A program made the position numbers and the translations under genes. Positions 3,461-21,844 of a stretch of DNA of 35,151 nucleotides are shown in pieces. The first letter of the stretch is position 1, and each line of letters starts with the position of its first letter. This DNA comes from Dehalococcoidia bacterium (GTDB taxonomy: Bacteria > Chloroflexota > Dehalococcoidia > DSTF01 > RBG-16-68-14): assembly GCA_040882355.1 (NCBI GenBank), contig JBBEBM010000024.1, forward strand, positions 1 through 35,151. Direction: 5' to 3'. Under the pieces are notes generated by a model. The model worked only from the letters and a program-made list of their open reading frames with translations. It ran no database searches and was not told where the DNA came from.

Positions 3461-3584
3461 CGGGGTGCAGGGCGCCGGAGGCGCCTGCTGGGGGTCAGGG
3501 GCCTGTCCTGAGCCAAGCCGAAGGAGTGTCCCCCAGATTCTACTCTTCTCTGGGCGGGAGGGCGGGAAGATGAACATTCCTTCT
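3461..3584 (+). repeat. ~100-nt GC-rich multi-hairpin intergenic repeat (copy 1), carrying a nested 24-nt insertion at 3502-3525
   Basis: Aligns by eye with the reverse complement of 27365-27468 and with 13315-13410 (GGGGTGCAG..GGGGG..GTGTCCCCCAGA..GGGCGG..GGGAA). Confidence 0.8.
3502..3525 (+). mobile_element. 24-nt TGAGC..CGAA mini-element nested in the ~100-nt repeat
   Basis: cctgtcctgagccaagccgaagga is absent from the paralogous copies, which read GGGG|GTGTCCCCCAG. Confidence 0.7.
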
Positions 3585-3702
3585 TGGGGGCGCTGCTGAC
3601 TCTGCACATCGGAGGTGAAGGAAAGCAACCTATGGGATTGGAATCAAGTGTGCCGCCGACTCCGCTTCGGACGACCTGCCTCGCGCTCGGCGAGCGCGCC
3701 AC

Positions 3703-3732
3703 TTGACGGCTCCCGCCACCGAGCACTACGCT
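3703..3732 (+). promoter_or_regulatory. Putative sigma70 promoter for the VOC gene
   Basis: TTGACG-18 nt-TACGCT upstream of the ATG at 3795. Confidence 0.5.
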
Positions 3733-3794
3733 GCCCTCACCTCACCCTGCCGCGGTCTGAGGAAGACAAGGACAGGAAAGGACAGGGATCCGCC

Positions 3795-4847
3795 ATGCTT
3801 ACTCGTGTCGACCGGATGCTGCTCGCGGTGCGCGACCGCGCCGCCGCCGAAGAGACGTTTCGCGAGGTGCTCGGCGCCGAGAAAGTGCGCGACGACACCA
3901 GCGAGCTCTACAAGGCGAAGCGCTCGGTGATGCAGGCGGGCGTCAGCGAGTTCGAGCTGCTGGAGCCGGCAGGCGATGGCCCCGTCCAGGCGTACCTCGA
4001 GCGCTGGGGCGAGGGCATCTTCGCGGGAGGCTTCGCGACGAAAGACCTCTCGGCCCTGTGCGACCGCCTCACCTCGCGCGGCGTCGCGTGGCGCGACGAG
4101 GCCGGCCAGGCGCACATCGAGCCGGACCAGACGCCGGGCATGCGCATGGTGATCGGCCCGCAGGCCGAGCGCACGCCTGTTGGCTTGATCACCTGGCTCT
4201 ACGAGGTGACGAACGTGATCGACGACCACAAGGCGGCGGCGACCTTCTATGCGGAGAGCTTCGGCCTGGACGCGAGCAAGTTCTCGCCGCTCAAGAGCGA
4301 GCAGTACGGCTACAAAGGCCAGCTCACGCTCTTCGACCCGCCGGCGCGCCTCGACCGCATCGAGCTGTCGCAGATCACCGAGCCCGAGAAGGCGATGGGC
4401 CGCTTCGCATCGAAGCACGGCCAGTCGGTCTACATGTGTTACGTCGAGACCGACGGTGTCGCGGCGATCGCCGAGCGGCTCGAACGGCGCAACGCGCGTT
4501 ACGCCGGCCGCTCCGACAACCAGGACGGTCTGTTCATCCACCCGACGTCGCTCTGCGGGATGCTGATGGGCGTGAGCCGGACGAACCTGGCGTNNNNNNN
4601 NNNNNNNNNNNNNNNNNNNNNNNNNNNNNNNNNNNNNNNNNNNNNNNNNNNNNNNNNNNNNNNNNNNNNNNNNNNNNNNNNNNNNNNNNNNNNAGAGGCC
4701 TGTCCTGAGCCAGCCGAAGGAGGCAGCCGGCAGGCGGGGTGAGGGTCGCACCCGACGTCGCTCTGCGGGATGCTGATGGGCGTGAGCCGGACGAACCTGG
4801 CGTGGCGCTGGTCGGGGCGGCCCGAGCTGGCGCAGGTGGCTCGATAG
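3795..4847 (+). CDS. Two-domain VOC (glyoxalase/methylmalonyl-CoA epimerase-like) protein, about 280 aa after removing an assembly duplication (join 3795-4593 + 4804-4847)
   Basis: VDRMLLAVRD, FELLEPAGDGPVQAYLERWGEGI, RIELSQ..FASKHGQSVY, FIHP..CGML. The C-terminus WRWSGRPELAQVAR* lies after the gap. Confidence 0.8.
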
Positions 4848-4917
4848 CGCCTCAGCCGCCTTCGCGACACCAGAGACGATGGGACCAGAAATGTGTTCTT
4901 CGGCGATCCCCGTTCGC

Positions 4918-4992
4918 GCCCCTCTACCGCGTGGCGGGAGAGGCCTGTCCTGAGCCAGCCGAAGGAGGCAGCCGGCAGGCGGGGTGAGGGTC
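4918..4992 (+). repeat. CCCCTCT..GCGGGAGAGG..GGGGTGAGGG-type palindromic repeat interrupted by a 23-nt mini-element (4944-4966)
   Basis: cccctctaccgc-gtg-gcgggagagg[cctgtcctgagccagccgaagga]ggcagccggcaggcggggtgaggg. Confidence 0.65.
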
Positions 4993-4996
4993 GAGG

Positions 4997-5005
4997 TGGT
5001 ATGCT
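4997..5005 (+). promoter_or_regulatory. Extended -10 promoter (TGnTATGCT), leaderless geometry
   Basis: TGG-TATGCT followed by 6 nt and then the ATG at 5012. Confidence 0.6.
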
Positions 5006-5011
5006 AAGGCG

Positions 5012-5128
5012 ATGGCTGAGCTAGGATTCGTCATCTTCGTCATCGGGGCACTGCTGGTCGTCGACCGCGACCGGCTTGAGTGGCTCACCACAAAGCTCCG
5101 CGACCTCTTCGACTGGGCGTCTTCCTAA
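5012..5128 (+). CDS. Small (38 aa) putative membrane protein, not in the ORF track
   Basis: MAELGFVIFVIGALLVVDRDRLEWLTTKLRDLFDWASS*: hydrophobic N-terminus plus amphipathic C-terminal helix, host-like GC3 codons, leaderless promoter. Confidence 0.55.
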   Translation: MAELGFVIFVIGALLVVDRDRLEWLTTKLRDLFDWASS

Positions 5129-5198
5129 CCGGGCGCACTAAACAAGCACGCGCAATCCGGCGAACCGGTCGGAGCGATGCCGGCGGCCTCAGCCCTCC

Positions 5199-5222
5199 GT
5201 AGGCGAGGCTTTCCAGCCTCGC
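5199..5222 (+). repeat. GTAG-tagged REP
   Basis: GTAG-GCGAGGCT-ttcc-AGCCTCGC; sister copy at 34496-34519. Confidence 0.75.
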
Positions 5223-5535
5223 CGCCCTCCACTCCGATCGCCTCGCTCGCCCCTCCGGCCGCATACCGCCGACTGCCAGTCGGCGGTGTTGTTACAACCC
5301 TCCGCGAACGGTGCGCCACCAACGCCTTCGCGCTCTTCCCGCCTGCCCTTACCCTCGTCCTCGACAACTCGGCGCAGGCATGCGGCGCGCAGACTCCCGG
5401 CGGCAGGTTCACGGGCCGGTCGCGATTACGCCGTGGTCCGCCCGAAAAGGCGATTTTGCCAAACGGAATGACACGAAACGAGCGAACAGACTTGAGCGCG
5501 GAGCTACGACCCGCAGCGGCCCGTGGTTCAGGGCT

Positions 5536-6408
5536 CTAGCACAGGTGGTCGTCGGCGGGGACAGGCACTTGCCGCGGGCCGGTCGCACGCGCGAGGGCGA
5601 TTCGGTCACGTATCGAGGCATAGGCCATCGCCGCAATGAAGAGCGCGGCCGAAAGCAGCACGATGCTGGCGCCCGACGAGACATCGACGTAATAGCTGGC
5701 GTATATCCCGCCCAAGCCGCAGAAGGCTCCTACGAAGACGGAGATCAGCACCATGCGGTGGAAGCTGTTCGTGAGCAGCCGAGCGATGATGGGGGGGATC
5801 ACAATCGCCGCTGCGATGAGCGTGACGCCCATCACCTGCATCGAGACGACAATCACCGCAGCGAGTACGAGCGCGAATAAGGTATCGATCCACTCGGTCG
5901 GCACGCCATAATAGCGTGCGACTTCGGGATCGAACGTGGTGAACAGGAGCTGCTTGTAGGCGACGAAGACCAGGAATCCCGTGGCTGCCGCGACCACGGC
6001 GATCGCCACAAGGTCTTGCTCCGTTACGCCGAGGATGTTGCCGAAGAGCGCCGCGTCAAAGCTGCGCGTGAACGTCTTGTAGCGGCTGATCAGGGCGATG
6101 CCGAGCGCGAAGCTCGCCGTCGTGATGATGCCGATCGCCGCGTCCGCGCCGATGGTCGGGCGACGACGGACGGTGGCGTTGATCAGGAGAGCGGAGAAGA
6201 AGCCCCAGATCGGCGCGCCGATGTAGAAGCTGAACGACATCACGTAGCTCACCACCGCGCCGCCGAAGATGGCATGGGAGAGCCCGTGGCCGATGTAGCT
6301 CATCCGGCGCAGCACGATGTAGACGCCGATCAGGCCGCATAGCCCGCCCACCATCGTCGCGGCGATGATCCCCCTTACGAAGAACTCATACTGCAGCGGC
6401 TCCAGCAC
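5536..6408 (-). CDS. znuB: Zn/Mn ABC transporter permease
   Basis: GVYIVLRRMSYIGHGLSHAIFGG, LFGNILG, TFDPEVA, MQVMG. GTG at 6408 follows a GAGGAG RBS. Confidence 0.88.
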   Translation of the reverse strand: MLEPLQYEFFVRGIIAATMVGGLCGLIGVYIVLRRMSYIGHGLSHAIFGGAVVSYVMSFSFYIGAPIWGFFSALLINATVRRRPTIGADAAIGIITTASFALGIALISRYKTFTRSFDAALFGNILGVTEQDLVAIAVVAAATGFLVFVAYKQLLFTTFDPEVARYYGVPTEWIDTLFALVLAAVIVVSMQVMGVTLIAAAIVIPPIIARLLTNSFHRMVLISVFVGAFCGLGGIYASYYVDVSSGASIVLLSAALFIAAMAYASIRDRIALARATGPRQVPVPADDHLC

Positions 6409-7258
6409 CGGTGCCAGTCTCCTCTTCGCCGTGGCTCTGTCGTCCGTCGCGCCGGCCAATGAGGTGCGGTCGCTCCGCCACCAGCGTCAGCCCCTGGTAT
6501 CGCACCACGGGCATCTCGACCCCGTACGTCTGCTCCAGGATCTTCGGCGTGAACACGTCGCCCGGGGGGCCCTCCGCAATGATGCGCCGGTTCATGCAGA
6601 CCACCCACGGCAGGTGCGCCGCGACCGAGTTGAGCTCGTGTGTGGTCATCAGGACAGTCACGCCTTGATGGTTCAGCTCGTCCAGCAGGTGCAGGATGTC
6701 GTCGCGCGTCTTGATGTCGACCCCGCTCGTCGGCTCGTCGAGGAGCAGCAGCCGCGGGTTGCTCACCAATGCGCGCGCCAGGAAGACGCGCTGCTGCTGG
6801 CCGCCGGAGAGCTCCCGGATGTGACGTCGCGCGAGATCGTCGATGCCCAGGCGCTCCATCATCGCGTGCGCCAGGTCGCGGTCCTGCCGGCGGCTCCAAG
6901 GGAACGGGCCGCTCTGCATCGCCCTCCCCAGCAGTACCACTTCCTCGACCGTGACCGGGAAGTTCCAGTCCACGGTCTCGAGCTGCGGCACGTAGCCCAC
7001 CTTCGGGCGGCGCCTGCCGGCTACTGACCTCCCGTCGACGCGCACGGATCCTTCGTGAATCACTGTCGCGCCCAGCAACGTGCGCAGCATCGTGGTCTTT
7101 CCGGACCCGCTCGGCCCGAGCAGCCCGACGAAGTCGCCCGCCTGCACCCGGAGCGTGACGTCTCGCAGGACGACCTCACCCTGGTAGCCGCACGTCACGC
7201 TCTCCACTTCGACGATGGGCCCTTCCGGCCCGCGTTCGTGCGGCTGTGGGTGTAGCAT
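6386..7258 (-). CDS. znuC: Zn/Mn ABC transporter ATP-binding protein
   Basis: [38 protein letters not shown]. Start placed at the ATG 7 nt after the znuA stop. Confidence 0.9.
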
Positions 7259-7265
7259 GACGACG

Positions 7266-8315
7266 TTATTGCGGGTAGACCGCGCTGCTCTCACCTTCGA
7301 ACACCACCGTCGGGTCGTATCCCTCGAACGCGTCCGCGTTGCCGCCCAGCGCGGGCATCATGATCTCCATGTTCTGCAGCAGCAGTCCGACGTAGGTGTG
7401 GTTGGCGTCGCCGGGAGCGCCTGGCAGGTCGTCGTCGCGCAGGTCGTCGATAAACTCCGCCCCTCCCTCTTCAGCGATCGTCTCCAGGACGTCGCTGGGG
7501 AAGACCTCAGAACCGAAGACGGCCGGTACCTGCTCCTCCTGGACCTGATCGATCAGGTCAGCGACCTCCTGGGCGGACGGCTCGGAAAAGTCCGACGGCT
7601 GCACCGCGCCAATCACGACAAACCCGTACCGCGGCGCCCAGTACGCCCAGGAGTCGTGGTAGGTGAGCAGCTTTCGGTTTGCCTCCGGTACCGTTTGCAC
7701 CGCGTCCATCATCCGCTGATCGATGTCCTCGATCTGCGTTCGGAACGCCTCCAGGTTCGCGTCGTAGTAGTCGGCGTTGTCCGGATCGAGCTCGACGAGC
7801 TTGTCGCGGATCAGCTCCGCATACTTCAAGCCGTAGAGCGGGTTCGGCCACAGGTGGGGGTTCGGGTGGCCGTCCGCCTCCGGGAACGAGAAGTCGTATT
7901 GATACTCGCCTTCGGTGATCGTCTCGTTGCCGAGCATGAGGATCGCGGTGTCAGCCTGCTTGCTGGACTCGGCCAGCGCCACAGTTGGATCTTCCAGGTC
8001 GAGGCCGTTCACGACGATCAGGTCGGCGTCGGACAGCAGCGCCGCGACCGACGGCGCGGGCTCGTACGTGTGCGAGTTGACGCCCTCCGGGATGATGCCT
8101 TCGACATCGATCATGGTGCCGCCGATGTTCTCGGCGATGCTGGTAATAGGCGAGACCGTGGTCACGATCCTCAGGTTGCCCCCGGCGGACGGCGTACCCT
8201 CCTCCGCGGTGGGAGTGGCGCCATCGCCGCTGTTGCCGCTGTCGTCGTCATCGCATGCCCCAACGAGCAGGACGGCGAGCAGCGCAAACAGTACCAGGAA
8301 TCGGAGCCCCTTCAC
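7266..8315 (-). CDS. znuA: Zn/Mn ABC transporter substrate-binding lipoprotein (cluster A-I)
   Basis: Lipobox LVGAC; ligand motifs NSHTYEP, PNPHLW, YHDSW; RBS AAGGAGG before the GTG. Confidence 0.88.
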   Translation of the reverse strand: MKGLRFLVLFALLAVLLVGACDDDDSGNSGDGATPTAEEGTPSAGGNLRIVTTVSPITSIAENIGGTMIDVEGIIPEGVNSHTYEPAPSVAALLSDADLIVVNGLDLEDPTVALAESSKQADTAILMLGNETITEGEYQYDFSFPEADGHPNPHLWPNPLYGLKYAELIRDKLVELDPDNADYYDANLEAFRTQIEDIDQRMMDAVQTVPEANRKLLTYHDSWAYWAPRYGFVVIGAVQPSDFSEPSAQEVADLIDQVQEEQVPAVFGSEVFPSDVLETIAEEGGAEFIDDLRDDDLPGAPGDANHTYVGLLLQNMEIMMPALGGNADAFEGYDPTVVFEGESSAVYPQ

Positions 8316-8339
8316 GTGTATCCTCCTTTGGTTTGGTGA

Positions 8340-8774
8340 CTAGGGCGCGGGCTGCTGACAGTTGGTGCAGAGCCCGAAGATCGCGAAGTGGTCGATGTCC
8401 GGTTTGAAGCCGGACTCCGCCAGGATCTCCGCGCCCAGGTTCTCGAGATACTGGTCGTCGAGCGATGTCACGGCGCCGCACCCGCGACAGATCAGGTGGT
8501 GATGCCGGCGCTGCTGTCGCACCCACTCGTAGATCGTTTCGCCGGTGCCCATGTCCGTCTCCGAGACGAGGCGCATCTCCTTGAGCACGCCCAACGTCCG
8601 GTACACCGTCGAGATGTCGACGTACGGGTAGTCCAGCCGCACCTGGTCGTAGATCTCGCTCGCCGTCAGGTGGCCGTCGGCGTGGCGCAGCGCCGACAGG
8701 ATCATCAGCCGCTGCGGCGTTAGCTTGTGCCCGGCTTCGCGGAGGACCTGGACGGTCTCGGTCTCACAACTCAA
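8340..8774 (-). CDS. zur: Fur-family transcriptional repressor, probably Zur
   Basis: [28 protein letters not shown]. Heads the znu operon. A TTG start after GGAG is preferred because the ORF-track ATG lies inside the -10 box. Confidence 0.82.
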
Positions 8775-8784
8775 CTGTCTGCTC

Positions 8785-8800
8785 CTGCAATTGGTTGCAG
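8785..8800. promoter_or_regulatory. Putative Zur/Fur operator (CTGCAA-N4-TTGCAG)
   Basis: Perfect 6-bp inverted repeat directly downstream of the zur -10 box. Confidence 0.6.
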
Positions 8801-8802
8801 TT

Positions 8803-8832
8803 ATCATACTTGGCGGCTGCGGCCAGTGTCAA
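8803..8832 (-). promoter_or_regulatory. sigma70 promoter of zur-znuACB
   Basis: Minus strand reads TTGACA-18 nt-TATGAT. Confidence 0.75.
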
Positions 8833-8863
8833 GGTTGCGCCAGAATCGCCAACGTCCGCCTTT

Positions 8864-8899
8864 AGCACTCTTGTTCAACCTTGACGGGTGCGCTACACT
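8864..8899 (+). promoter_or_regulatory. uvrA promoter with a candidate LexA box overlapping the -35
   Basis: TTGTTC-17 nt-TACACT. GCAC-TCTT-GTTC at 8865-8876 is one mismatch from GAAC-N4-GTTC. Confidence 0.5.
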
Positions 8900-8951
8900 G
8901 CTCCTGCTGCCCGGTCCCCCATACGGAAACTTCCCCTGGAGGTATCGATCC

Positions 8952-11951
<3,000 letters not shown>

Positions 11952-11966
11952 TAGGCAGACGAGATT

Positions 11967-11990
11967 GTAGGGGCGGCTCGTGAGCCGCCC
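11967..11990 (+). repeat. GTAG REP upstream of RAYT
   Basis: GTAG-GGGCGGCTC-gt-GAGCCGCCC. Confidence 0.9.
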
Positions 11991-12259
11991 AAGAGCAGCA
12001 CCCTCATGCCGTACGATCCGAACCGACACCATCGACGGTCGATCAGGTTGAAGGACTTCGACTATTCGCAGAACGCGGCGTATTTTGTGACGCTGGTGTG
12101 CAAGGATCGGGATGTCTTACTGGAGACCCCTGAGGCGGCGGACTTTGTCGATGACGCTTGGCGATGGCTGGCTACACGGTACGAGCGGGTAGACCTCGAT
12201 GAGTACGTGGTGATGCCGAATCACTTCCATGGGATTGTTGTCTTGAGGGAGAACTCTCA

Positions 12260-12283
12260 GGGCGGCTCCCGAGCCGCCCCTAC
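12260..12283 (-). repeat. GTAG REP inside the RAYT coding sequence (inverted)
   Basis: GGGCGGCTC-cc-GAGCCGCCC-CTAC, translated as GGSRAAPT. Confidence 0.9.
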
Positions 12284-12512
12284 ATGGCGTACGCACCGGA
12301 AGCCGTTGGGCGAGTTGATCGGGGCGTTCAAGACGGTGTCTACCAGGCGAATCAATGCGTTTCGCGACACAGCGGGTGTCCGGCTCTGGCAGCGGAACTA
12401 CTACGAACACGTGATTCGCAACGACAATGAGTTCGAGCGAATCCGTCAGTACATCCGTGACAACCCTTCGCGGTGGTGCGATGATCCTGAGAATCCGGCG
12501 GTCTTTGCGGCT

Positions 12513-13252: not shown

Positions 13253-13256
13253 GGCC

Positions 13257-13316
13257 GTGAAGTACGGGATCGATCTTCCGAACCTGGGCGGCGTGGGTGA
13301 TCCGCGGCTTTCGTGA
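13257..13316 (+). pseudogene. Probable 5' remnant of an LLM-class flavin oxidoreductase gene
   Basis: GTG-started MKYGIDLPNLGGVGDPRLS*, 4 nt after the HAD stop. Resembles LLM N-termini and ends exactly where a repeat begins. Confidence 0.5.
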
Positions 13317-13410
13317 AGGGGGAGTCGAAGGGGGCTTGCCCCACTCGCGGGGGCCTGGGGGTGTCCCCCAGACCAAGTAACCTCTCTCGGGCGGCGGGTG
13401 GGAAAAATAA
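13315..13410 (+). repeat. ~100-nt intergenic repeat (copy 2)
   Basis: ggggagtcgaagggggcttgcccc..gggggcctgggggtgtcccccaga..gggcggcgggtgggaa. Confidence 0.7.
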
Positions 13411-13439
13411 CGGTGTCGAAGACTACCCCCATTCAGCTA

Positions 13440-13468
13440 TTGACCTGCCCATAGTCAGCCGATAGGCT
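13440..13468 (+). promoter_or_regulatory. Putative sigma70 promoter for the LLM gene
   Basis: TTGACC-17 nt-TAGGCT. Confidence 0.55.
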
Positions 13469-13529
13469 GGCAGCGCTCGTGCTGGGCGCACTTCGTCCTG
13501 GCGCGAGACGCCACCCACGAGAGCGCACC

Positions 13530-14720
13530 ATGCAAGTCAGCGTCTTCTACCTGCCATCCATCGGCTCGCGCCCGGAGATCGAGAAGGGAATGGCCGGCAT
13601 CCGCACCGACCTCTATCAGCAGATGCTCCACGAGCTGAAAGAGCAGGCGCAGCTCGCGGACGAGCTCGGCTACGACTCCATCTCGTTCACCGAGCATCAC
13701 TTCCACGTCGAGGGGTTCGAGATCTCGAACAACCCCATCATGCTCGATCTGTTCATCGCGCTGAACACCAAGCGCATCCGGGTCGGCCAGCTCGGCCTCG
13801 TGCTGCCGTCGCAGAACCCGCTGCGCGTCGCCGAAGACATCGCGATGCTCGACCACATGAGCGGCGGGCGCGCGAACGCCGGCTTCGCGCGCGGTTACCA
13901 GCGTCGCTGGGTGGACGTGATGGCGCAGCAGCTCCACGGCATCCACGGCGTGACGCCCGGCATGCACGACGAGATCGACCAGACAAACCGCGACGCCTTC
14001 GAGGAGCACTTTGAGATCATCAAGCGCGCCTGGACGGAGGACATGCTCGACTTCAAAGGCAAGTTCTGGCAGATCCCGCCCGAAGGCACGCCCTGGGAGA
14101 TCGAGGCGACGAAGCAGTGGGGCGCCGGTGTGGACGAGAACGGCATCGTACGCAGCATCGGCGTCGTGCCCAAGCCGCTGCAGAAGCCGTTTCCGCCGCT
14201 CTTCCAACCCTTCGCCTCCAGCGAGAGCACCATCCGCTGGTGCGCCCGCGAGCACGTCACCGCCATCCTGCCGCCCATGTACGTCGATGTGCAGAACCAC
14301 CTCTACGACGTTTACCAGGAGGAGGCCGCGGCGAACGGCCGCACGCTCACCTCCGGCGAAGGCCTGGGTGTGCTTCGCGACGTCGTGGTCGCCGACTCCG
14401 ACAGCGAGGCGCTGGAGCTCTGGCAGAACGGCGGCGCGTTCTGCGGCGCTGCCTGGTTCGCCCCGTTCGGCTTCTGGCGCGGCTACACGGAGCCGGGCCG
14501 CGAGGGCATGCTCTCGACCGAAGAGCTGATGGAGCGCGGACTGATCCTCGTGGGCACGCCAGACTCCGTCAGCCGCCAGATGGAGGCGATGCTCAAGGGC
14601 ACGCCGATCAAGTGGCTCTTTGCCTGGACCTACAACGGCCTAGTCCCCCACGACAAGATCATGCGCTCCCTGGACCTCTTCGCCACCAAGGTCCTTCCCC
14701 GCTTCGCCAACCGCGCCTGA
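13530..14720 (+). CDS. LLM-class (luciferase-like) flavin-dependent oxidoreductase
   Basis: ADELGYDSISFTEHHF, NPLRVAEDIAMLDHMSGGR..GFARGYQ, PKPLQKP, VGTPDSV, FATKVLP. Confidence 0.93.
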   Translation: MQVSVFYLPSIGSRPEIEKGMAGIRTDLYQQMLHELKEQAQLADELGYDSISFTEHHFHVEGFEISNNPIMLDLFIALNTKRIRVGQLGLVLPSQNPLRVAEDIAMLDHMSGGRANAGFARGYQRRWVDVMAQQLHGIHGVTPGMHDEIDQTNRDAFEEHFEIIKRAWTEDMLDFKGKFWQIPPEGTPWEIEATKQWGAGVDENGIVRSIGVVPKPLQKPFPPLFQPFASSESTIRWCAREHVTAILPPMYVDVQNHLYDVYQEEAAANGRTLTSGEGLGVLRDVVVADSDSEALELWQNGGAFCGAAWFAPFGFWRGYTEPGREGMLSTEELMERGLILVGTPDSVSRQMEAMLKGTPIKWLFAWTYNGLVPHDKIMRSLDLFATKVLPRFANRA

Positions 14721-14865
14721 CCAGTTCTCGATTCTGGGTTCTGTCAATCACCCCCAAACGGGCGTTCGCCAGCCTCGTTCGAATCGTGTAGTATACGTTC
14801 GCCCCGTGCGACCGAGCCTGTCGCTGGCAGGATCGTATCGACATAACAAAGAGGAGCGCACCCCC

Positions 14866-15735
14866 ATGCCGGACGACGACGTAGTCCTTCACGAGAAGCA
14901 AGGCCACGTGGCCTACATCACCCTCAACCGGCCCGATGTCCTCAACGCCATGACCGACGAGATGCTCGACTCGATCCTCGCGGGCATCCGTGGCGCCGAG
15001 GAGGACGACGACATCAAGTGCGTCGTGATCCGCGCGAACGGACGCGCCTTCAGCTCCGGCTGGGACCTGGAGGAGATCGGCCGCATGTACGGTATCGCCG
15101 ACGTGAAGTCGGGCGAGCGCGTGAAGCGCCCGCCCCAGCGCAACGGCCTCATCCTCGACCGCCGTCGCTCCGAGAAGTTCGCCGCCATCCTGATGTCGAT
15201 GAAGACGACGGTCTGCCAGGTGCACGGCTACTGCTACGGCGCCGCCTGGATGCTCGCCCTGGTCTGCGACTTCGTCATCGCGTCGGACGATGCGATCTTC
15301 GCCCACAACGAGCAGCGCCTGGGCGCGTCGGGCACGATGTGGACGCTGCCGCTCGTGATCATGCACTGCGGCCCGAAGAAGGCGCGCGAGCTGCTCCTTA
15401 GCGGCCGCGACTTCAACGCGGAAGAAGCCGAGCGCCTCAACCTGATCAACCGCGTCGTGCCCGCCGAGAAGCTCCAGGAGGAGGTCGACACCCTGACGCA
15501 GGCGATCTGCCTCCTGCCCCGCGACGGCCTCGCGATCGGCAAAGCGTTCACCAACGTCACGTACGACTCGCTCAATATGCTGTCGCCGTTCCTGCAATAC
15601 TCCGCCATCCACCCGCTGATCATGGGCATGAAGTGGGCGCCCGATGAGACGAGTTTCCCGAAGGAGCGCCGCGACTTCGGCAGCCGCGAAGCCGCCCAGA
15701 AGCGGACAGAGCGCTACCCAGAGGGCTATCGCTAG
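14866..15735 (+). CDS. Enoyl-CoA hydratase/isomerase (crotonase) family protein
   Basis: ITLNRPDVLNA, AFSSGWDL, VHGYCYG, CDFVIAS, ARELLLSG. RBS AAAGAGGAG. Confidence 0.9.
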   Translation: MPDDDVVLHEKQGHVAYITLNRPDVLNAMTDEMLDSILAGIRGAEEDDDIKCVVIRANGRAFSSGWDLEEIGRMYGIADVKSGERVKRPPQRNGLILDRRRSEKFAAILMSMKTTVCQVHGYCYGAAWMLALVCDFVIASDDAIFAHNEQRLGASGTMWTLPLVIMHCGPKKARELLLSGRDFNAEEAERLNLINRVVPAEKLQEEVDTLTQAICLLPRDGLAIGKAFTNVTYDSLNMLSPFLQYSAIHPLIMGMKWAPDETSFPKERRDFGSREAAQKRTERYPEGYR

Positions 15736-15754
15736 CCAGCGCGAGGCGTTCGAC

Positions 15755-16960
15755 GTGAACGACAGCCCGCTCGCTGGCGCCACCGTCCTCGACATGTCGC
15801 AGGCGGTCACCGGGCCGTACACGGGCTGGCTGCTCGCCGGCATGGGGGCGCGCGTGATCAAGCTCGAAGGGCCCCAGGGCGACCAGTCGCGTGTCAGCAC
15901 GCGCAGCACCGCCGGCATCAGCCCGCTCTTCTGCCTCTATAACGGCGGCAAGGAGGCGATCAGCCTCAACCTCAAGACCGAGCAGGGCCGCGCCATCTTC
16001 CGCGACCTCATCCCCAAAGTCGACGTCCTGCTCGAGAACTTCGTGCCGGGCACGATGGACGACTGGGGCTTCGACTACGACGCGCTCTCGGCGCTCAACC
16101 AGCGCCTGATCTACGCCTCCGTCTCGGGCTTCGGCCACGACAGCAAGTACCGCAACGCGCCGGCGCTCGACATGGTGCTCCAGGCGATGACCGGGATGAT
16201 GGCCGCCAACGGCTTCCCCGATTGGCCGCCCACGCTCGCGGGCGTCCTCTTCATCGATACGCTCGTCTCGCCGCACGTCGCCGCCGGCATCATCGCCGCG
16301 CTCTACCAGCGCCAGCGCACCGGCCGCGGCCAGCGCCTCGAGATCGCCATGCGCGACGTCGCCGCCTGCATTCCGTTCAACCTTTACAACATCTACTTCA
16401 ACACGGGCCGCGTGCCCGTTCGATCGGGCAACCTGCTCGTCGGCTACTCGCCGGGCAACCTCTACGCGACGAATGACGGCTACGTGTACATCGCGTGCAA
16501 CCTCGACAAGCAGGCGAACGGCGCCTTCACCGCCATCGGCCGCGAGGACCTGATCGGCGCGCCGAACTTCGCGACGCGCGCGGAGCGCTGGTCGAACCAC
16601 GACGAGATCGACCGCATCGTCGGAGAGTGGACCGGCCAGCGGACGAAGCAGGACGTCTTCGAGCGGATGATCGCCCACGACGTGCCGTGCGGCATCGTCA
16701 TGGACATCGAAGAGGTGCTCAACGACGAGGACCTGAACGCGCGCGGTGTCTTCCAGGAGATCGACCAGCCGGGCATCGGCAAGCTGCGCCTGCCGCGTCC
16801 GCCCATCGTGTTCGGCGGGCAGCCGGCGCCCGTCCGGCCCGGCCCGTTCCTCGGCGAAGACAACGCCCGCCTTTACAAAGAGCTGCTCGGCTACGACGAG
16901 ACGCGCCTCGCCCAGCTCATCGAAGAGGGCGTGATCACTGCGCCGCCAGACGGCTCGTAG
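15755..16960 (+). CDS. Family III (CaiB/BaiF) CoA-transferase, singleton, catalytic Asp retained
   Basis: VLDMSQAVTGP, GARVIKLE, ENFVPG, SGFG, PPTLAGVLFID, GPFLGEDN. Confidence 0.92.
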   Translation: MNDSPLAGATVLDMSQAVTGPYTGWLLAGMGARVIKLEGPQGDQSRVSTRSTAGISPLFCLYNGGKEAISLNLKTEQGRAIFRDLIPKVDVLLENFVPGTMDDWGFDYDALSALNQRLIYASVSGFGHDSKYRNAPALDMVLQAMTGMMAANGFPDWPPTLAGVLFIDTLVSPHVAAGIIAALYQRQRTGRGQRLEIAMRDVAACIPFNLYNIYFNTGRVPVRSGNLLVGYSPGNLYATNDGYVYIACNLDKQANGAFTAIGREDLIGAPNFATRAERWSNHDEIDRIVGEWTGQRTKQDVFERMIAHDVPCGIVMDIEEVLNDEDLNARGVFQEIDQPGIGKLRLPRPPIVFGGQPAPVRPGPFLGEDNARLYKELLGYDETRLAQLIEEGVITAPPDGS

Positions 16961-16965
16961 GGGCG

Positions 16966-17094
16966 CCGGTCGACCGATTGTAGGGGCGACCAGATGGTCG
17001 CCCTCGCGACCAAGGGCCGCGGCAAAGGACCGGTCGGCCGATTGTAGGGGCGACCATCTGGTCGCCCTCGCGACCGATAGGTCGCGGCAAAGGA
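16966..17094 (+). repeat. Tandem 64/65-nt repeat x2, each unit containing a GTAG REP (BIME-like)
   Basis: ccggtcgRccgattGTAG-GGGCGACCA-nn-TGGTCGCCC-tcgcgacc..cgcggcaaagga at 16966-17029 and 17030-17094. Confidence 0.85.
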
Positions 17095-17101
17095 ATTGCA
17101 C

Positions 17102-17785
17102 ATGCCCGAGAAGGTCTTCTTCTTCGTCCAGCGCGCTGCGAACCTCGACCGCGATGAGTTCGCGCGCCGCTACCTCGAAGAGCACGCGCCCCTCGCGATG
17201 CGCCACTTCCGCGCCCTGCGCCGCTATGTCGTGAACATCGTCGAGCGCGACCCCGAGACGGACCCGCTCGTGCCCGCCGACGGCATTTCCGAGATGTGGT
17301 TCGACAGCCTCGAAGACTTCACTGACGCCGAACGGCTCTACGACTCGCCGGAGGGCGCCGCGAAGGTGATCGAGCAGAGCGCGAGCGTCTTCGGCGGCGT
17401 GAGCGCGTACCACGTCGACGGCACCGTCCAGCGGGACTACGAGCGCACGTGGCCGCTCGGCGAGCGCTCGCCGGGCACGAAGCTGCTCGGCCCGCTGCGC
17501 CGCCTCGATGGCCTCACCAAGGAGCAGTTCGTGGAGCACTGGCGCGGCACGCATGCGCGCCTCGCACTCGAGCACGTCCTCGGCATCGGCCGCTACGTCA
17601 CCAACGTCGTGCGGGCGCCGCTCATCCCCGGCTCGCCGGAGTTCGACGGCATCGTGGAGGTGAGCTATCTGGAGAAGCGGCGATTCGCCACGCCGGAGAG
17701 CGAGGCGATCATGCAGGCGGACACCGCCAGCTTCCTCATCAAGCCGCGCTCTTACAGCGTCGGCGAGTACGTCCTGCGGGAGTAA
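17102..17785 (+). CDS. Tandem EthD-domain protein
   Basis: Two units: DEFARRYLEEHAPL..RYVVN..DGISEMWFDS and EQFVEHWRGTHARL..RYVTN..DGIVEVSY. Confidence 0.85.
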   Translation: MPEKVFFFVQRAANLDRDEFARRYLEEHAPLAMRHFRALRRYVVNIVERDPETDPLVPADGISEMWFDSLEDFTDAERLYDSPEGAAKVIEQSASVFGGVSAYHVDGTVQRDYERTWPLGERSPGTKLLGPLRRLDGLTKEQFVEHWRGTHARLALEHVLGIGRYVTNVVRAPLIPGSPEFDGIVEVSYLEKRRFATPESEAIMQADTASFLIKPRSYSVGEYVLRE

Positions 17786-17806
17786 GGGCGCACATTGTTC
17801 AGCGTC

Positions 17807-18010
17807 GTAGGGACATAGCTTTAGCTTTGTCCTGGCGACCGAAGGTCGCCGCCGGGATCGCTCTATCTTTGGTAGCCCAGGCCTTCAGCCTGGGCGAAGT
17901 GCGACGGCCGGGCTGAAGGCCCGGCCTACGGTGACCGAGGGCGGTAGCCTTCTCCCGTACGCGAGGCTCTACAGCCTCGGCGAGCGTGGCCGGGCTGAAG
18001 GCCGGCCTAC
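17807..18010. repeat. Cluster of GTAG REPs, including two inverted doublets (17872-17929, 17957-18010), between convergent genes
   Basis: GTAG-GGACA..TGTCC; GTAG-CCCAGGC-cttca-GCCTGGG ... GCCGGGC-tgaag-GCCCGGC-CTAC; a second degenerate doublet. Confidence 0.8.
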
Positions 18011-18011
18011 C

Positions 18012-19148
18012 TCACGCGAACAGCAGGCGCGCGATGCGGCGACGGTGGTGCGCCGGGTCGCCCAGGTAGTGGTAGAGGGCGCGCGAGCGCTGCGTGTAGA
18101 GGTAGAGGCCGTACGCCTTGTCCGACCCGACGCCGGCGTGCACGTGGTGCGCCGACTCGCACGACTGGTAGAAGCCTTCGCTCGCGACGGCCTTCGCCAC
18201 CGAGACCGCCTCCCGCGCGTCCGGGCGGCCCGTCTCTAGCTTCCAGACCGCCTCATACGCCGTCCAGCGCGCCGCGTCGGCGTGGTTGAGCATGTCGACG
18301 AGGTGGTCCTGCACCCGCTGGAAGCGCGCTATCGCCTGCCCGAACTGCACGCGGCGCTGCGCGTAGTCGAGCGTCATCTCGTAGACGCGACGCGTCGCGC
18401 CGGCGATGTACGCGCAAAGCAGCGCCGTCGCCACGTCAAGCGACGGTTCGAGCGCGCGCCAGCCGTCGTCGACCTCGCCGACGACGTTCTCGCGCGTGAC
18501 ATCGACGCCGTTGAACGTCACGTCGAAGAGCGGCTCGCCTGAGAATCCGCGCATCGGCCGCAGCGACACGCCCGGCGCGTCGCGCTCGACCAGGAAGAGC
18601 GTCACGCCTTCCTCCCACTCGCCCGCGGTCGTCCGCGCCGCGACGATCAGCGTGCCGGCGGCGCCCGCGTCGGGAACGAATCGCTTCGTCCCGTCCAGCA
18701 CGAAGCCGCCGCCCGACGCGCGAGCCGTCATCTGCACGTGTTCCGCTGCCCAGCCGTAGTCCGGCTCGGTCAGCGCCAGTGCGACGATACGCTCGCCCCG
18801 CGCGATCTCAGGCAGCAGCAGCGTCTTCTGCTCGACGCTGCCGCTCTGCAACAGCAGCGTCGCGCCCACCACCGCCGACGAGTGGTACGGCCCTGGCAGC
18901 AGGCCGCGCCCGAGCTCTTCGTAGAGCGCCGCCGCGTCCGTCAGGGAGCCGCCCGCGCCGCCGTGCTCCGTCGGGATCAAGATACCGAGCCAGCCAAGGC
19001 CCGCCATCTTCTCCCAGAGCTCCCACGAAAACCCGCCTTCGTCTTCGTTGATGCGCCGCACGTCCGCCAGCGGGCACTCCCGCTCGACGAAGTCGCGAGC
19101 GCTGCGCTGCAGCAGTTGCTGCTCGTCGCTGAGGGAGAGGTCAGCCAT
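18012..19148 (-). CDS. Acyl-CoA dehydrogenase, partner (beta) subunit of a heteromeric ACAD
   Basis: LGWLGILIPTEHGG, EELGRGLLPGP, LDGTKRFV, RVQFGQAIARFQ, HHVHAGVG, LGDP. Confidence 0.88.
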   Translation of the reverse strand: MADLSLSDEQQLLQRSARDFVERECPLADVRRINEDEGGFSWELWEKMAGLGWLGILIPTEHGGAGGSLTDAAALYEELGRGLLPGPYHSSAVVGATLLLQSGSVEQKTLLLPEIARGERIVALALTEPDYGWAAEHVQMTARASGGGFVLDGTKRFVPDAGAAGTLIVAARTTAGEWEEGVTLFLVERDAPGVSLRPMRGFSGEPLFDVTFNGVDVTRENVVGEVDDGWRALEPSLDVATALLCAYIAGATRRVYEMTLDYAQRRVQFGQAIARFQRVQDHLVDMLNHADAARWTAYEAVWKLETGRPDAREAVSVAKAVASEGFYQSCESAHHVHAGVGSDKAYGLYLYTQRSRALYHYLGDPAHHRRRIARLLFA

Positions 19149-19155
19149 GGCCCTT

Positions 19156-19310
19156 CGTCATTCTGGGCGCCTCTTCTTGTCATTCTGAGCGCAGCGAAGA
19201 ATCTCGCAGCCCACACACCGAGCAGCAGGTCCGAAGGGAAGGGGCGTTGAGCGCGCAACATGAGCGCATCGCATCACGAAACGAGACCCTTCGCTTCGCT
19301 CAGGGTGACG
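19156..19310. repeat. CGTC/TGTC-tagged palindromic repeat doublet (inverted pair at 19179-19205 and 19283-19309)
   Basis: gtcattctgagcgcagcgaagaatctc versus reverse complement gtcaccctgagcgaagcgaagggtctc; partial third copy at 19156. Confidence 0.85.
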
Positions 19311-19320
19311 AATGCGCCCA

Positions 19321-20511
19321 TCACCCGGCCTCTCCGCCCGTCATCCCGCGGAACATGCGCAGCTTCTGTATCTCGACCGTCCCGCCGGGGTGCGCCATCA
19401 GGATCGCGTAACGATGAAAGTACTCCAGGTCGCCCTCGAACGGCGCCCACGCCGGATCGCTGATCAACGCCAGCGGCCCGAGCGCCTGGTGGATCGCCTC
19501 GCCCAGCTTCAGGTCGAACAGCTTTCGACCAAGCGACACCTGGCTGCCTTCGTACGTCGTCCGCTGGCCCGTCGAGGCCATCCACTCGTTGCGCAGCCGG
19601 AACAGGCGCTGTACCTGGAAGTCGACGTAGACGCGCGCGACGGCATCCTGCGCCTCGGGCCGTCCGCCCAGCTCGCGACGGCAGTAGTCGAGCAGTTGCG
19701 CGACGACCCGCTCGTCGCGGTCCATGCCCGGCCCGATGCCGACGGTGAGCGCGCCCATCAGTCCTGTCGTGAACGCGGTCCATCCTTCGCCCTCGCGACC
19801 GATCATGTGGTCGGCGGGTACGCGCGCGTCCTCGAAGATGATCGTGCGCTTTTTGCTGCCCGCAATCATCTCCATGTCCGTCATCACGATGCCCGGTAGC
19901 CCGGACGGCACGAGGAACGCGCTCAGGTTGTCGCGGCGCGGTGCGTTCGGGTCGGTGATCGCGAGCGTCTCCAGGTAGTCCGCCTCGAAGTGCCCGCCCA
20001 CGAGCGTCTTCGTGCCGTTGAGCACGTAGGCGTCGCCCTGGCGTTCGGCGCGTGTCTTCAGCGCGGGCAGGTCGGAGCCCGCCTCCGGCTCCGTGTACAG
20101 CTCCCACGTGATCACCTCGCCGCGCAGGATCGGCGGCAGGAAGCGCTGCTTCTGTTCGTCGGTGCCCACCTGCCAGAGCGAGCCTGCAGCGGACCCGCCG
20201 ATGTCGCCTGGCGGGTGCACGTTGTCCAGGTGCGGGATGCTCGCCTCCATCTCCTCGCGAATGACGGCCGCGACGTGCTGCGCCAGCCCGCCACCGCCGA
20301 ACTCTTTCGGCCACGTCGGCGCGTACCAGCCGCGCTCCCCGAGCGCGCGCAGGAAGGCGCGGTTGCGCTGGAACTGCTCGTACGAGAGGTCGGCGGCATC
20401 GACGGGCGCGCCGACGCCCGCGACGTGGTCGCGCAGCCAGGCGCGCACCTCTGCGCGGAGCGCCTCGCGCTCTCGCTCCTCCTCGTCCGTGTACCGCGTC
20501 TCGAAATCCAC
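19321..20511 (-). CDS. Acyl-CoA dehydrogenase-fold protein, alpha subunit (divergent active site)
   Basis: GWYAPTWPKEFGGGG, YTEPEAGSDL, LNGTK, GGTVEIQK. Confidence 0.88.
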   Translation of the reverse strand: MDFETRYTDEEEREREALRAEVRAWLRDHVAGVGAPVDAADLSYEQFQRNRAFLRALGERGWYAPTWPKEFGGGGLAQHVAAVIREEMEASIPHLDNVHPPGDIGGSAAGSLWQVGTDEQKQRFLPPILRGEVITWELYTEPEAGSDLPALKTRAERQGDAYVLNGTKTLVGGHFEADYLETLAITDPNAPRRDNLSAFLVPSGLPGIVMTDMEMIAGSKKRTIIFEDARVPADHMIGREGEGWTAFTTGLMGALTVGIGPGMDRDERVVAQLLDYCRRELGGRPEAQDAVARVYVDFQVQRLFRLRNEWMASTGQRTTYEGSQVSLGRKLFDLKLGEAIHQALGPLALISDPAWAPFEGDLEYFHRYAILMAHPGGTVEIQKLRMFRGMTGGEAG

Positions 20512-20525
20512 CGTGTGTCAGCCTA

Positions 20526-20551
20526 GTAGGGACGGACCTTCAGGTCCGTCC
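20526..20551 (+). repeat. GTAG REP
   Basis: GTAG-GGACGGACC-ttca-GGTCCGTCC. Confidence 0.8.
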
Positions 20552-20572
20552 GGCCCGTCCCTCGGACGCCTG

Positions 20573-21844
20573 TTATTCATGCGACCTCAACACCTCGTCT
20601 CGGGCGGCGTTGATCGCGTCGACCACCTCACGCGGCCGGCCCAACAGCCCGCCGAGCAGCTCTTCGTTGTGCTCGCCGAGCAGCGGCGGCGGCGCGCACG
20701 GCGGGTCGGGGTTCGCTCTCAGGCGCCAGGGCATGTTCGGCACCCGGCAACGCCCCACTTCGGGGTGCTCCGGCTCCATGAAGAAGCCGCGCGCCTGGAA
20801 CTGCGGCTGCGCAAGCGAGTCCGCCGAGCTGCTCGACGGCCCGGCCGGCACGCCCGCGCTCTGGAGCGCGGCGGTCGCGTCCAGTGCTGTCCGCGCTCGC
20901 GTCCACGCCGCGATGCGCTCGTCGATCGCCTGCGCGTGCCTGCGCCGCCCGATCACGTCTCGATACTCCGGCCGCGATAGCTCCGCGTCGCCGATGACCC
21001 CGCAGAGGGCGTCCCACTGCTCGTCCGTCTCGATGCTGATCGCCACCCATGCATCACCTGTGGTGAGCTTGTCGAATCCATCTCCGGTGCACGGGTATGC
21101 GTCCTGTGGCACGGCGCTGCCCGCGTTGCCGCGCGGCACGCCGACGCGGCCGTTCAGGAAGTAGTCCATGAAGGGCGCGCCCATCATTGCCAGCACGACG
21201 TCCGACATCGCTAAGTCGATGCGCTGCCCACAGCCAGTGCGCCGCTGATGACGCAGCGCCGCCAGCACTGCGAAGACGAGCGTCAGGCCCGTCGCGTAGT
21301 CGGCCCACGTGCCGCCGGCGGCCTTCGGCGGGCCGCCCTCGTGGCCGCCCGCATGGCCGCCCGCATGGCCGTTCACCGAGTTCAGGCCCGTGTACGCGTG
21401 CACCGTGCCCATGAACGCGCGCAGCGAGCGGTCGCGGCCCGTCTGGCCGAAGCCGGTGCAAGAGAGCATGATCAGCTCCGGCTTCTCCTTGCGCAGCCCC
21501 TCGTAGCCGAGGCCGATACGATCCATCGTGCCGTAGCTGAACGCCTCGACGACGATGTCGCTCGCCAGGATGATCTCGCGCGCCATCTGGAGCTGCTCGG
21601 CGTCGTCGAGCTGCAGCGTCACGCTCTTCTTCGCCGGGTTGATCGAGTTGAAGAAGCCGCTCCGGTTCAGCCCGCGCACGCCGTCCGCGAACGGAGGGTT
21701 GTCGCGAATGTGATCGAACGCCGCGATGCCCTCGACCTTGATCACCTCGGCGCCCATTCGCGCCAGCAGGTACGTCCCGTACGGCCCGGCGATGATCCAC
21801 GACAGGTCCGCCACGCGCACGCCGTCTAGAGGGAGCGGAGACAT
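20573..21844 (-). CDS. Family III CoA-transferase, BbsF-like subunit (Asp retained) with two in-frame micro-insertions
   Basis: VADLSWIIAGP, GAEVIKVE, GGTWADY, PPLLGEHN. Confidence 0.92.
   Translation of the reverse strand: MSPLPLDGVRVADLSWIIAGPYGTYLLARMGAEVIKVEGIAAFDHIRDNPPFADGVRGLNRSGFFNSINPAKKSVTLQLDDAEQLQMAREIILASDIVVEAFSYGTMDRIGLGYEGLRKEKPELIMLSCTGFGQTGRDRSLRAFMGTVHAYTGLNSVNGHAGGHAGGHEGGPPKAAGGTWADYATGLTLVFAVLAALRHQRRTGCGQRIDLAMSDVVLAMMGAPFMDYFLNGRVGVPRGNAGSAVPQDAYPCTGDGFDKLTTGDAWVAISIETDEQWDALCGVIGDAELSRPEYRDVIGRRRHAQAIDERIAAWTRARTALDATAALQSAGVPAGPSSSSADSLAQPQFQARGFFMEPEHPEVGRCRVPNMPWRLRANPDPPCAPPPLLGEHNEELLGGLLGRPREVVDAINAARDEVLRSHE
21057..21080 (+). mobile_element. 24-nt TGAGC..CGAA mini-element inserted in-frame in the CoA-transferase gene
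   Basis: cctgtggtgagcttgtcgaatcca. Removing it converts YPCTGDGFDKLTTGDAW to YPCTGDDAW, matching the paralog YPTQGDDRW. Confidence 0.8.
21331..21371. repeat. 12-nt tandem repeat (~3.4 units) in CDS, encoding GHAG-GHAG-GHEG
   Basis: ggccgccctcgt ggccgcccgcat ggccgcccgcat ggccg. Confidence 0.85.

Follow-up and report, generated by a model that had tools for sequence, protein, structure and literature searches.

The stretch of DNA analysed here, called the window, comprises 35,151 nt of a Dehalococcoidia bacterium (assembly GCA_040882355.1, contig JBBEBM010000024.1) and carries at three places a small unit of about 24 nt that is built around the anchor TGAGC..CGAA. The host genome (G000 in the analysis) is that of a free-living Chloroflexota organism from soil or sediment and measures 3.33 Mb with 67% G+C. 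The original prediction had described the unit as a mobile mini-element inserted cleanly into three unrelated targets, and when the letters were re-read its pattern was found at all three. Copy 1 (3502..3526, + strand, CCTGTCCTGAGCCAAGCCGAAGGAG) is a hairpin unit of 24-25 nt with the arrangement CCTGTCCTGAGC-CAAGC-CGAAGGAG; its host is a ~100-nt repeat, which holds it in the apical loop of its second hairpin. Copy 2 (4944..4967, + strand, CCTGTCCTGAGCCAGCCGAAGGAG) reads CCTGTCCTGAGC-CAGC-CGAAGGAG and stands between GCGGGAGAGG and ..GGTGAGGG of another repeat family. Copy 3 (21057..21080, + strand, CCTGTGGTGAGCTTGTCGAATCCA) is a diverged variant, CCTGTGGTGAGC-TTGT-CGAATCCA, which lies antisense and in frame within a gene for a family III CoA-transferase (20573..21844, - strand; Pfam PF02515, 328.7 bits), where it is translated as GFDKLTTG and leaves the reading frame intact.

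The predicted pattern matches four times in the window and not once in 100 dinucleotide-preserving shuffles, and a search of the whole genome gave 26 matches. The fourth window match, at 4699-4722, adjoins a 100-N scaffold gap (4594-4693) that is flanked by duplicated 55-mers (4539-4593 equals 4749-4803, and 4694-4748 equals 4939-4993), and a contig of another sequencing run (X2) joins 4538 directly to 4749. The 4699 match is therefore an assembly duplicate of the copy at 4944, and the segment 4539..4748 is a scaffolding artefact. It follows from this join that an open reading frame called at 3615-4742 is partly artefactual, the true sequence passing from 4538 to 4749.

The insertion in the CoA-transferase gene is recognized from its empty counterparts. 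The related loci come from Dehalococcoidia (Chloroflexota) genomes assembled from metagenomes, 31 related genomes formed the comparison set, and the orthologue comparisons were drawn from sister genera. The eight extra residues GFDKLTTG are missing from the orthologues L002 and L003 (69% identity), which belong to two sister genera, so that the in-frame position claimed earlier is confirmed and is now joined by empty orthologous sites. A paralogue on contig C41, which is 39% identical to the CoA-transferase of the window, carries the identical 24 nt at the same codon, and a 72%-identical orthologue of this paralogue (L070, genome G008) is empty. Deleting exactly 24 nt from the C41 gene restores the L070 sequence, the two sequences agreeing for 11 nt to the left of the junction and 20 nt to its right, which bears out the claim of clean insertion without target duplication. 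Other CoA-transferase homologues carry unrelated insertions in the loop that holds copy 3, and tolerance of this loop therefore explains at least part of the recurrence in these enzymes. Three family III paralogues are clustered within 8 kb in the window (20573-21844, 26024-27277 and 27486-28775, all on the minus strand), and the genome search gave 42 candidate matches to this family.

The CoA-transferases are not isolated cases. The unit lies in frame in at least seven genes with empty counterparts and adds 7-8 residues to each. These genes are the two CoA-transferases, isoleucyl-tRNA synthetase (IleRS), aspartate carbamoyltransferase (PyrB), a phosphoenolpyruvate (PEP)-utilising enzyme, an enoyl-CoA hydratase and one gene of unknown function that encodes a thioredoxin-fold-like protein. 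The empty orthologues are 66-83% identical to the filled genes; for the enoyl-CoA hydratase, which was compared with paralogues and nearest relatives, the identity is ~49%. In IleRS the insert reads PSTSSGQA, and the site is also filled in G012 and empty in G001, G005, G007 and G008. PyrB has a diverged filled copy in G001 and is empty in G005, G007 and G008. For the PEP-utilising enzyme (three empty orthologues), the thioredoxin-fold-like protein (two empty orthologues) and the enoyl-CoA hydratase, no filled copy was found elsewhere among the genomes compared. Sister genera differ in the sites that are filled, as a comparison of relatives had been proposed to reveal. Filled G012 and empty G001 share a genus, so that at least two events must be assumed at the IleRS site, and the units inserted in IleRS of G000 and G012 differ at three of the four loop bases and nowhere else. 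When frame and orientation were tabulated for the seven coding sequences, six insertions were antisense to the gene, three frames were used, and the net change was 21 or 24 nt. At several gene sites RTC or GTCGCC follows the unit; across phyla, conservation is weak beyond base +1, and we propose no target-site consensus.

A second line of evidence comes from repeats that exist with and without the unit. With nhmmer, 54 matches of the ~100-nt repeat of site 1 were found in G000, of which 12 are filled, 37 are empty and 5 could not be scored. The filled copy of the window spans 3458..3571 (+ strand), and the two other window copies, at 13327..13410 (+ strand) and 27375..27471 (- strand), are both empty, in agreement with the earlier description. 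The insertion point lies between GGGG(G) and TGTCCCCC, which corresponds to the apical loop of the second hairpin, and at this point the empty paralogues pass directly from ..TCTGGGGG to TGTCCCCCAGA.. without interruption. The ~100-nt repeat itself consists of two G/C-rich hairpins followed by CTGGGCGGGTGGGTGGGA and is Rfam-negative; copies resembling it occur in other Chloroflexota records (L141, L197 and L206). The palindrome that is split at site 2 has a 7-nt spacer between GCGGGAGAGG and GGTGAGGG in six copies, and the window copy has the 24-nt unit right after GAGAGG, so this part of the prediction also holds.

The same is seen in repetitive extragenic palindromic (REP) sequences of the GTAG type. 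A sister copy of the REP GTAGGGGCGC-acggccgt-GCGCCC is longer by exactly 24 nt, all of them in the loop, and five loci of the family GTAGGGGCGA-ccatctgg-TCGCCC carry the unit; the window holds an empty form of the latter at 17044..17068 (+ strand; GTAGGGGCGA-ccatctgg-TCGCCCT), other copies of the family having the unit in the loop. The unit is even nested in its own relatives. Longer sister hairpins, which read CTTCGC-loop-GCTCAG on the opposite strand, have loops of 3-4 nt in 58 of 76 cases, and in 11 of the 76 the loop is replaced by a unit of 27-28 nt in the opposite orientation. The nested variant GGAGTCTATC.. is common to these 11 copies. The unit favours the apical loops of other palindromes. 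Private variants common to some composites imply that composites have also multiplied as wholes and that not every copy represents a separate insertion.

This multiplication of composites has to be weighed as a possible explanation of the whole family. No dedicated enzyme would be needed if the unit spread by template switching at hairpins, illegitimate recombination, gene conversion and composite amplification. Amplification of composites is indicated by the sequence GGAGTC.. with which 8 of the 11 nested copies begin, two filled ~100-nt repeats have the rare loop CCAAGC in common, and the variant shared by both CoA-transferase paralogues at the same codon would also be explained by copying. 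However, gene conversion needs flanking homology, and the targets, seven genes as well as the repeats, bear no relation to one another; even the two CoA-transferase paralogues have the low identity mentioned above. For these reasons, and for others given below, we consider an enzyme-free origin unlikely. The sequence comparisons show units of ~24 nt added without target duplication to intergenic DNA, to the apical loops of palindromic repeats and, in frame, to loops of proteins.

The size of the family was estimated with search patterns of different stringency. The core CCTGAGC-N3-6-CGAAGG has 86 copies in G000 as compared to 1 in the reversed control. Of the 31 related genomes 29 contain it, copy numbers ranging from 0 to 118 across the set. 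A looser core, CTGAGC-N3-7-CGAAGG, gives 90 copies in G000, and the anchor TGAGC..CGAA alone matches 356 times as compared to 85 times in the reversed genome. The bases that flank the anchor pair with each other, which identifies the unit as a hairpin. At positions -1/+1 of the anchor C:G is found 150 times, with a mutual information of 0.099 (control 0.120). At -2/+2 the pairs C:G (122), G:C (56) and T:A (22) give 0.195 (control 0.041), at -3/+3 T:A (73) and C:G (68) give 0.195 (control 0.060), and at -4/+4 A:T (65) gives 0.170 (control 0.060). This covariation establishes that the ~24-nt unit can form a hairpin. The covariation of the flanking stem that had been proposed from the three window sites thus exists genome-wide, but the form in which it was quoted was offset by 1 nt, since the GG:CC pairing at site 3 needs an extra T after CGAA.

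The hairpin consists of a stem of C-C-T-G-A-G and C-G-A-A-G-G, a loop of 4-5 nt and a covarying closing pair, Y:R; its 5' tag, (A)GCC-TGYC, is unpaired. Opposed G-A and A-G steps within the stem form non-Watson-Crick pairs, so that T-G-A-G opposite C-G-A-A forms two ordinary pairs around two G.A steps. The loops are of two types, C-GNA-G with an optional extra pyrimidine and YYGY; those of G000 include CGAAG, CGCAG, CCTGT, CTTGT and similar sequences. Among 190 copies, a longer subtype with the tag TGTCAY (n = 64) and a shorter one with the tag GCCTGYC (n = 42) can be distinguished, the latter being the subtype of the original prediction. The window contains a convergent pair of the longer type, with the TGTCAT-tagged hairpin cttgtcattCTGAGCGCAGCGAAGaatctc as left member (19185..19199, + strand) and ttcgtcaccCTGAGCGAAGCGAAGggtctc as right member (19289..19303, - strand). 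CGTC-tagged copies also occur in G000, for example at C17 135237 and C57 22530. Tandem arrays with a 24-nt period are found at C17 135237 and 135261 and in L122 and L169; dimers are a minority, with 17 neighbouring pairs among the 190 copies. In a part of contig C17 (L217, C17 131000-138500), positions 2440-4500 hold a cluster of seven or more hairpin copies, of several subtypes, that surround a phosphotransferase-like open reading frame, together with another dispersed repeat (..ttttgccaaacagagtggtcaatcaaacg..). A C17 gene flanked by composite REP copies was considered as a nuclease and rejected, its motifs resembling those of a kinase-type phosphotransferase instead.

Most copies are intergenic. 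Of the 86 core copies, only 17 fall within genes as predicted by a crude home-made caller, which assigns only 74% of the genome to coding sequence, so that the true coding share is 74% or more. Such a distribution would be compatible with a non-mobile, selected site, for example an RNA stabiliser, a terminator or a protein-binding site, that is maintained by descent or arose by convergence, in which case site 3 might be a chance match. The identity of the G000 and G012 copies of IleRS outside the loop could likewise be due to selection at the nucleotide level. A fixed site of this kind is difficult to reconcile with the empty orthologous sites in seven genes, and the use of three frames and both orientations means that no single peptide has been selected. 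Relative to neighbouring genes, as far as the crude gene calls allow, there was no clear orientation bias, and in spacers between co-directional genes the TGTCAT type did not favour the sense strand (23 versus 18). Rfam gave no match at gathering score across the whole window, and matches at chance level only when E values up to 10 were admitted in 3430-3610. Site 3, finally, has an identical twin and sits exactly at the gap of its orthologues. We therefore regard selection on a non-mobile site as extremely unlikely. In the complete genome G027, 41 of 56 copies are on one replication strand if dnaA marks the origin, but these copies are clustered and gene orientation confounds the count.

The unit is not restricted to Chloroflexota. 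The 23-24-nt pattern was found at at least 124 loci across bacterial phyla, and the matches listed include Acidobacteriota, Chloroflexota, Pseudomonadota, Bacteroidota, candidate-phyla-radiation groups, Nitrospirota, Planctomycetota and Verrucomicrobiota. By our own arithmetic ~70 matches are expected by chance in 596 Gb, so that the cross-phylum count alone proves nothing. The composition of the matches is more telling. In the 126 copies listed, the loops are non-random (GAAGT 18, CTGT 13, TTGT 9) and belong to the few types already met in G000. Position -1 is occupied by A in 84 of the 126 copies; at position +1 there is a purine in 122, and this base pairs with a pyrimidine in 119. In five distant genomes the core has 2, 12, 51, 11 and 65 copies, as compared to 0-1 in controls. 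That the tag and stem are constant across many phyla and the loop is free to vary fits recognition by a protein better than passive copying, which is a further argument against spread without an enzyme.

The protein that had been suggested as a mover is a nuclease of the HUH/RAYT type or another trans-acting nuclease. If the unit were a classical REP mobilised in trans by an HUH transposase (Y1, RAYT or IS200-like), clean insertion without target duplication into single-stranded loops would be expected, since such enzymes act on single-stranded DNA (ssDNA). G000 indeed has three Y1_Tnp matches (C50 1602-1949, C32 2468-2803 and C48 ~5990-6500), some copies of the unit sit inside GTAG REPs, and across the 31 genomes copy number is positively correlated with how many Y1 matches a genome has (rho 0.64, without correction for relatedness). 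However, each of the three RAYT or IS200-like genes is bracketed by a GTAG-type REP family of its own and none by the TGAGC..CGAA hairpin, and no hairpin copy was found at six Y1 loci from G000 and related genomes. G008 (24 copies) and G006 (10 copies) have no Y1 match, and G028 has two Y1 matches and no copies. Nor was a Y1 match found in the Novosphingobium genome with 65 core copies or the Leeuwenhoekiella genome with 11. The ~24-nt unit lacks the GTAG tag, and REPs with a CGTC tag have no associated transposase according to Di Nocera 2013 (PMC3733652). An HUH or RAYT enzyme as the mover of the unit is thus not supported, and we consider it very unlikely. REPs of the GTAG kinds that accompany the Y1 genes are also present in the window, at 12259, 16957, 17044 and 31657.

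A search for a co-occurring nuclease gene, which had been recommended, led to a different family. Small GIY-YIG genes are bracketed by inverted hairpins of the same family as the unit in three phyla. G000 has three small GIY-YIG genes besides uvrC, and two of the three are bracketed on both sides by inverted TGTCAT.CTGAGCGNAGCGAAG.ATC hairpins, forming cassettes of ~400 bp on contig C35 (near 95.0-95.4 kb and near 37.2-37.6 kb). One of the bracketed genes encodes a core of ~107 residues with the GIY-YIG domain only. The small GIY-YIG proteins of G000 match only the GIY-YIG model of Pfam (48 and 56 bits) and no NCBIfam model. The second cassette (L240, C35 37150-37750) contains a gene that matches the Pfam model from position 16 only and looks degraded, with a nested composite hairpin just downstream.

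Among the relatives, loci bracketed on both sides are found in G004 (L231), G011 (L224) and G027 (L238). The gene in G027 is bracketed by the short CGTC type, which reads CGTCCTGAGCCCGTCGAAGGAC on one side of the gene and CGTGGTGAGCCTGTCGAACCAC on the opposite side; between them lies a compensatory change from CC:GG to GG:CC, which resembles the variant of site 3. In Novosphingobium (L388) and Leeuwenhoekiella (L384) a GIY-YIG homologue is bracketed by TGAGC-YYGY-CGAA hairpins. Homologues of the G000 protein with 43-50% identity (E 1e-13 to 1e-17) occur in one Sphingopyxis and one alphaproteobacterial genome, and at 5 of 8 such loci the flanking repeats fit the published NTS/SRM patterns described below. 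A homologue of the small GIY-YIG protein is encoded in all five of the distant genomes in which the motif occurs. The hairpin family is physically associated with these Ssn-like genes. Hairpin-bracketed nuclease genes would be hard to explain by chance if the unit spread without a dedicated enzyme. Copy number correlates with both kinds of gene, and it is therefore their position and not their count that separates the GIY-YIG from the Y1 candidate. A small single-domain GIY-YIG protein of the Ssn kind is accordingly a better candidate for a trans-acting protein than an HUH enzyme.

What is known of the Neisseria nuclease suggests how such a protein could act. The NTS form of the Neisseria repeat dRS3 is bound as ssDNA, on one strand only, by the GIY-YIG nuclease SsnA, which cleaves a few nucleotides upstream of the NTS tag (PMC11893778). 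Homologues of SsnA in many phyla are flanked by hairpins named Ssn-related motifs (SRM), in an arrangement like that of an insertion sequence, and Chenal 2025 leaves open both the role of Ssn outside Neisseria and the question of mobility (PMC11893778). The exact Neisseria-type NTS pattern was also seen in several Dehalococcoidia records (L254-L256, L259, L282, L283 and L286) and in many other phyla, at at least 129 loci. By analogy, the unit studied here may act as ssDNA that is recognized by a small single-domain, Ssn-like GIY-YIG nuclease. In tandem arrays, cuts upstream of each tag would free pieces of unit length, ~24 nt, and we propose that such pieces could be re-ligated into, or copied into, DNA that is single-stranded, for instance at replication gaps or in the loops of hairpins. 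The reading that we prefer, and regard as probable, is that the element is an oriented hairpin like the CGTC/TGTC-tagged REPs and the SRMs, that it is added cleanly in units of ~24 nt, and that an Ssn-like GIY-YIG protein is its cognate enzyme, the cut pieces being reinserted.

A number of observations weigh against this reading. GIY-YIG enzymes cut hydrolytically, and to our knowledge no strand-transfer activity has been described for them, so that the insertion step is without biochemical precedent. The exact GCCTGYC subtype was not seen beside a nuclease gene in G000, where only the longer TGTCAT-tagged sister type holds this position. Of 20 small GIY-YIG loci in relatives, only 3 have TGAGC..CGAA hairpins at both flanks and 1 has such a hairpin at a single flank, and at least 7 others carry different inverted hairpins, for example CCGAGC..GCGAGG. 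G005, G008, G018 and G022 contain 24-42 copies, and their GIY-YIG matches are of UvrC size only or absent; genomes that hold copies without a small GIY-YIG gene would be more easily explained by spread without an enzyme. Copy number is correlated with GIY-YIG matches (rho 0.53, again uncorrected for relatedness) less strongly than with Y1 matches. In the two Neisseria genomes searched no homologue of the G000 GIY-YIG protein was found. The published degenerate SRM pattern matches none of the five window sites; in G000 it has 37 matches as compared to 9 in the reversed control, and only 1 of the 37 overlaps this family. Nearest-neighbour folding of the three sites, as DNA or RNA, did not recover the proposed hairpin (z -1.2 to +0.5), and with folding energy failing to predict it the structural support for the hairpin is the covariation alone. 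Contigs of four metagenome runs from one study, in which rare variants are dropped, showed no 24-nt gap at 3502, 4944 or 21057 and hence no filled/empty polymorphism.

In view of the above, the notion of a mobile, non-coding mini-element is retained in part. A unit of ~24 nt that is non-coding, inserted cleanly, independent of its surroundings and found in both orientations and several frames agrees with the evidence, but some composites have spread whole and the HUH/RAYT mover has to be abandoned. A more far-reaching proposal would be that the CGTC/TGTC-tagged REPs of most bacterial phyla owe their movement to Ssn-type GIY-YIG nucleases as their missing 'transposase', which would cut upstream of each hairpin and release 24-nt ssDNA for insertion, without duplication, at single-stranded loops and replication gaps. 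We put this forward tentatively and consider it doubtful. If it were true, the unit would be the smallest mobile DNA known, moved by a chemistry not known for transposition, and 8-residue loops would be steadily added to essential proteins. In annotation, the unit accounts for many spurious small open reading frames and for odd insertions of 7-8 residues in conserved Chloroflexota proteins.

The comparison with known repeats brings three separate descriptions together in one repeat family, namely the REPs with a CGTC tag but no transposase, the Ssn nucleases, whose function beyond Neisseria is still open, and palindromes that lie in frame within genes. Similarity to the Ssn/SRM system (PMC11893778) is seen in the short oriented hairpins with a conserved xGTC.. 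tag upstream of the palindrome and a C after it, in the tens to hundreds of copies per genome in many phyla, and in the inverted copies that bracket a GIY-YIG gene of ~100 residues, as in NTS-ssnA-NTS. In the long type, which has the TGTCAT tag, this C comes fourth after CGAAG, immediately behind the closing A:T pair, in 55 of 64 copies, and the short type has a C at position +3 in 56 of the 126 matches listed. The hairpins differ from the SRMs by two facing G.A steps in place of C:G pairs, and the subtype originally described has a shorter stem and the tag GCCTGYC. Genes are also entered more often, the in-gene fraction of core copies given above contrasting with 2% for NTS, which is rare inside genes (PMC11893778). 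Insertion is demonstrated here by empty orthologous sites, whereas mobility is not shown for NTS in the same paper. The exact empty sites, which document clean addition of 24 nt in hairpins and in essential genes (IleRS and PyrB), and the nesting of the unit inside other repeats go beyond the published work, and the published SRM search pattern misses a large cross-phylum sub-family.

The CGTC-tagged REPs are described as having an unpaired tag that is often TGTC and may also be CCTC, a stem of 8-9 bp whose first two positions are A.T pairs, a loop of 4-5 nt and an unpaired 3-nt tail with the consensus CCA (PMC3733652). Units inside genes add a few residues, the REPs occur in several phyla, and CGTC-1 has been equated with dRS3 of Neisseria, CGTC-1 and CGTC-4 with the Rickettsia palindromic elements (RPE) RPE-6 and RPE-4 (PMC3733652). 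Our comparison with CGTC-1 to -4 was made by these described features. The element has the tag TGTC at sites 1 and 2 and TGTG at site 3, a loop of N4-5 (fixed by construction in the cross-phylum search, which supplied the 126 copies among the matches listed), units inside genes, a presence in several phyla and no transposase partner, as in this description. It is also inserted inside small palindromes, though this has been published for REPs of the GTAG-23 family and not for CGTC REPs (PMC3733652). The sister TGTCAT type comes closer still, with an AT..AT stem start in 39 of 64 copies. In contrast, the GCCTGYC subtype starts with Y:R and then C:G and has seven stem positions, two of which are G.A, instead of 8-9 bp with an A.T start. 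Its tails are GTC, AGT and AGG and not CCA, only site 3 and its C41 twin ending in TCCA, and dimers are a minority here.

The RPEs are similar in that they are palindromic repeats placed in frame in unrelated housekeeping genes that are left intact (PMC10969869, PMC3733652), but RPE-1 measures ~150 bp as compared to 24 nt here and belongs to an intracellular alphaproteobacterium instead of a free-living member of the Chloroflexota (PMC10969869). With GTAG REPs and REPINs the unit shares the small size, the tagged hairpin and the likely involvement of ssDNA and a trans-acting protein (PMC2817692, PMC3116915). It differs from them in lacking the GTAG tag, in that the RAYT-like genes of G000 carry other repeats, and in an associated gene of the GIY-YIG instead of the HUH type. 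A literature text search with the DNA motif and its translations as strings matched no paper. Since the SRM pattern, the A.T start and the CCA tail all fail, the element is filed as a divergent variant of the CGTC/TGTC-tagged REP/SRM kind; by the definitions in print it is not a member. Repeats of this kind occur across bacteria and are tied to a small ssDNA nuclease, and the element described here clearly illustrates this known kind and does not add a new one.

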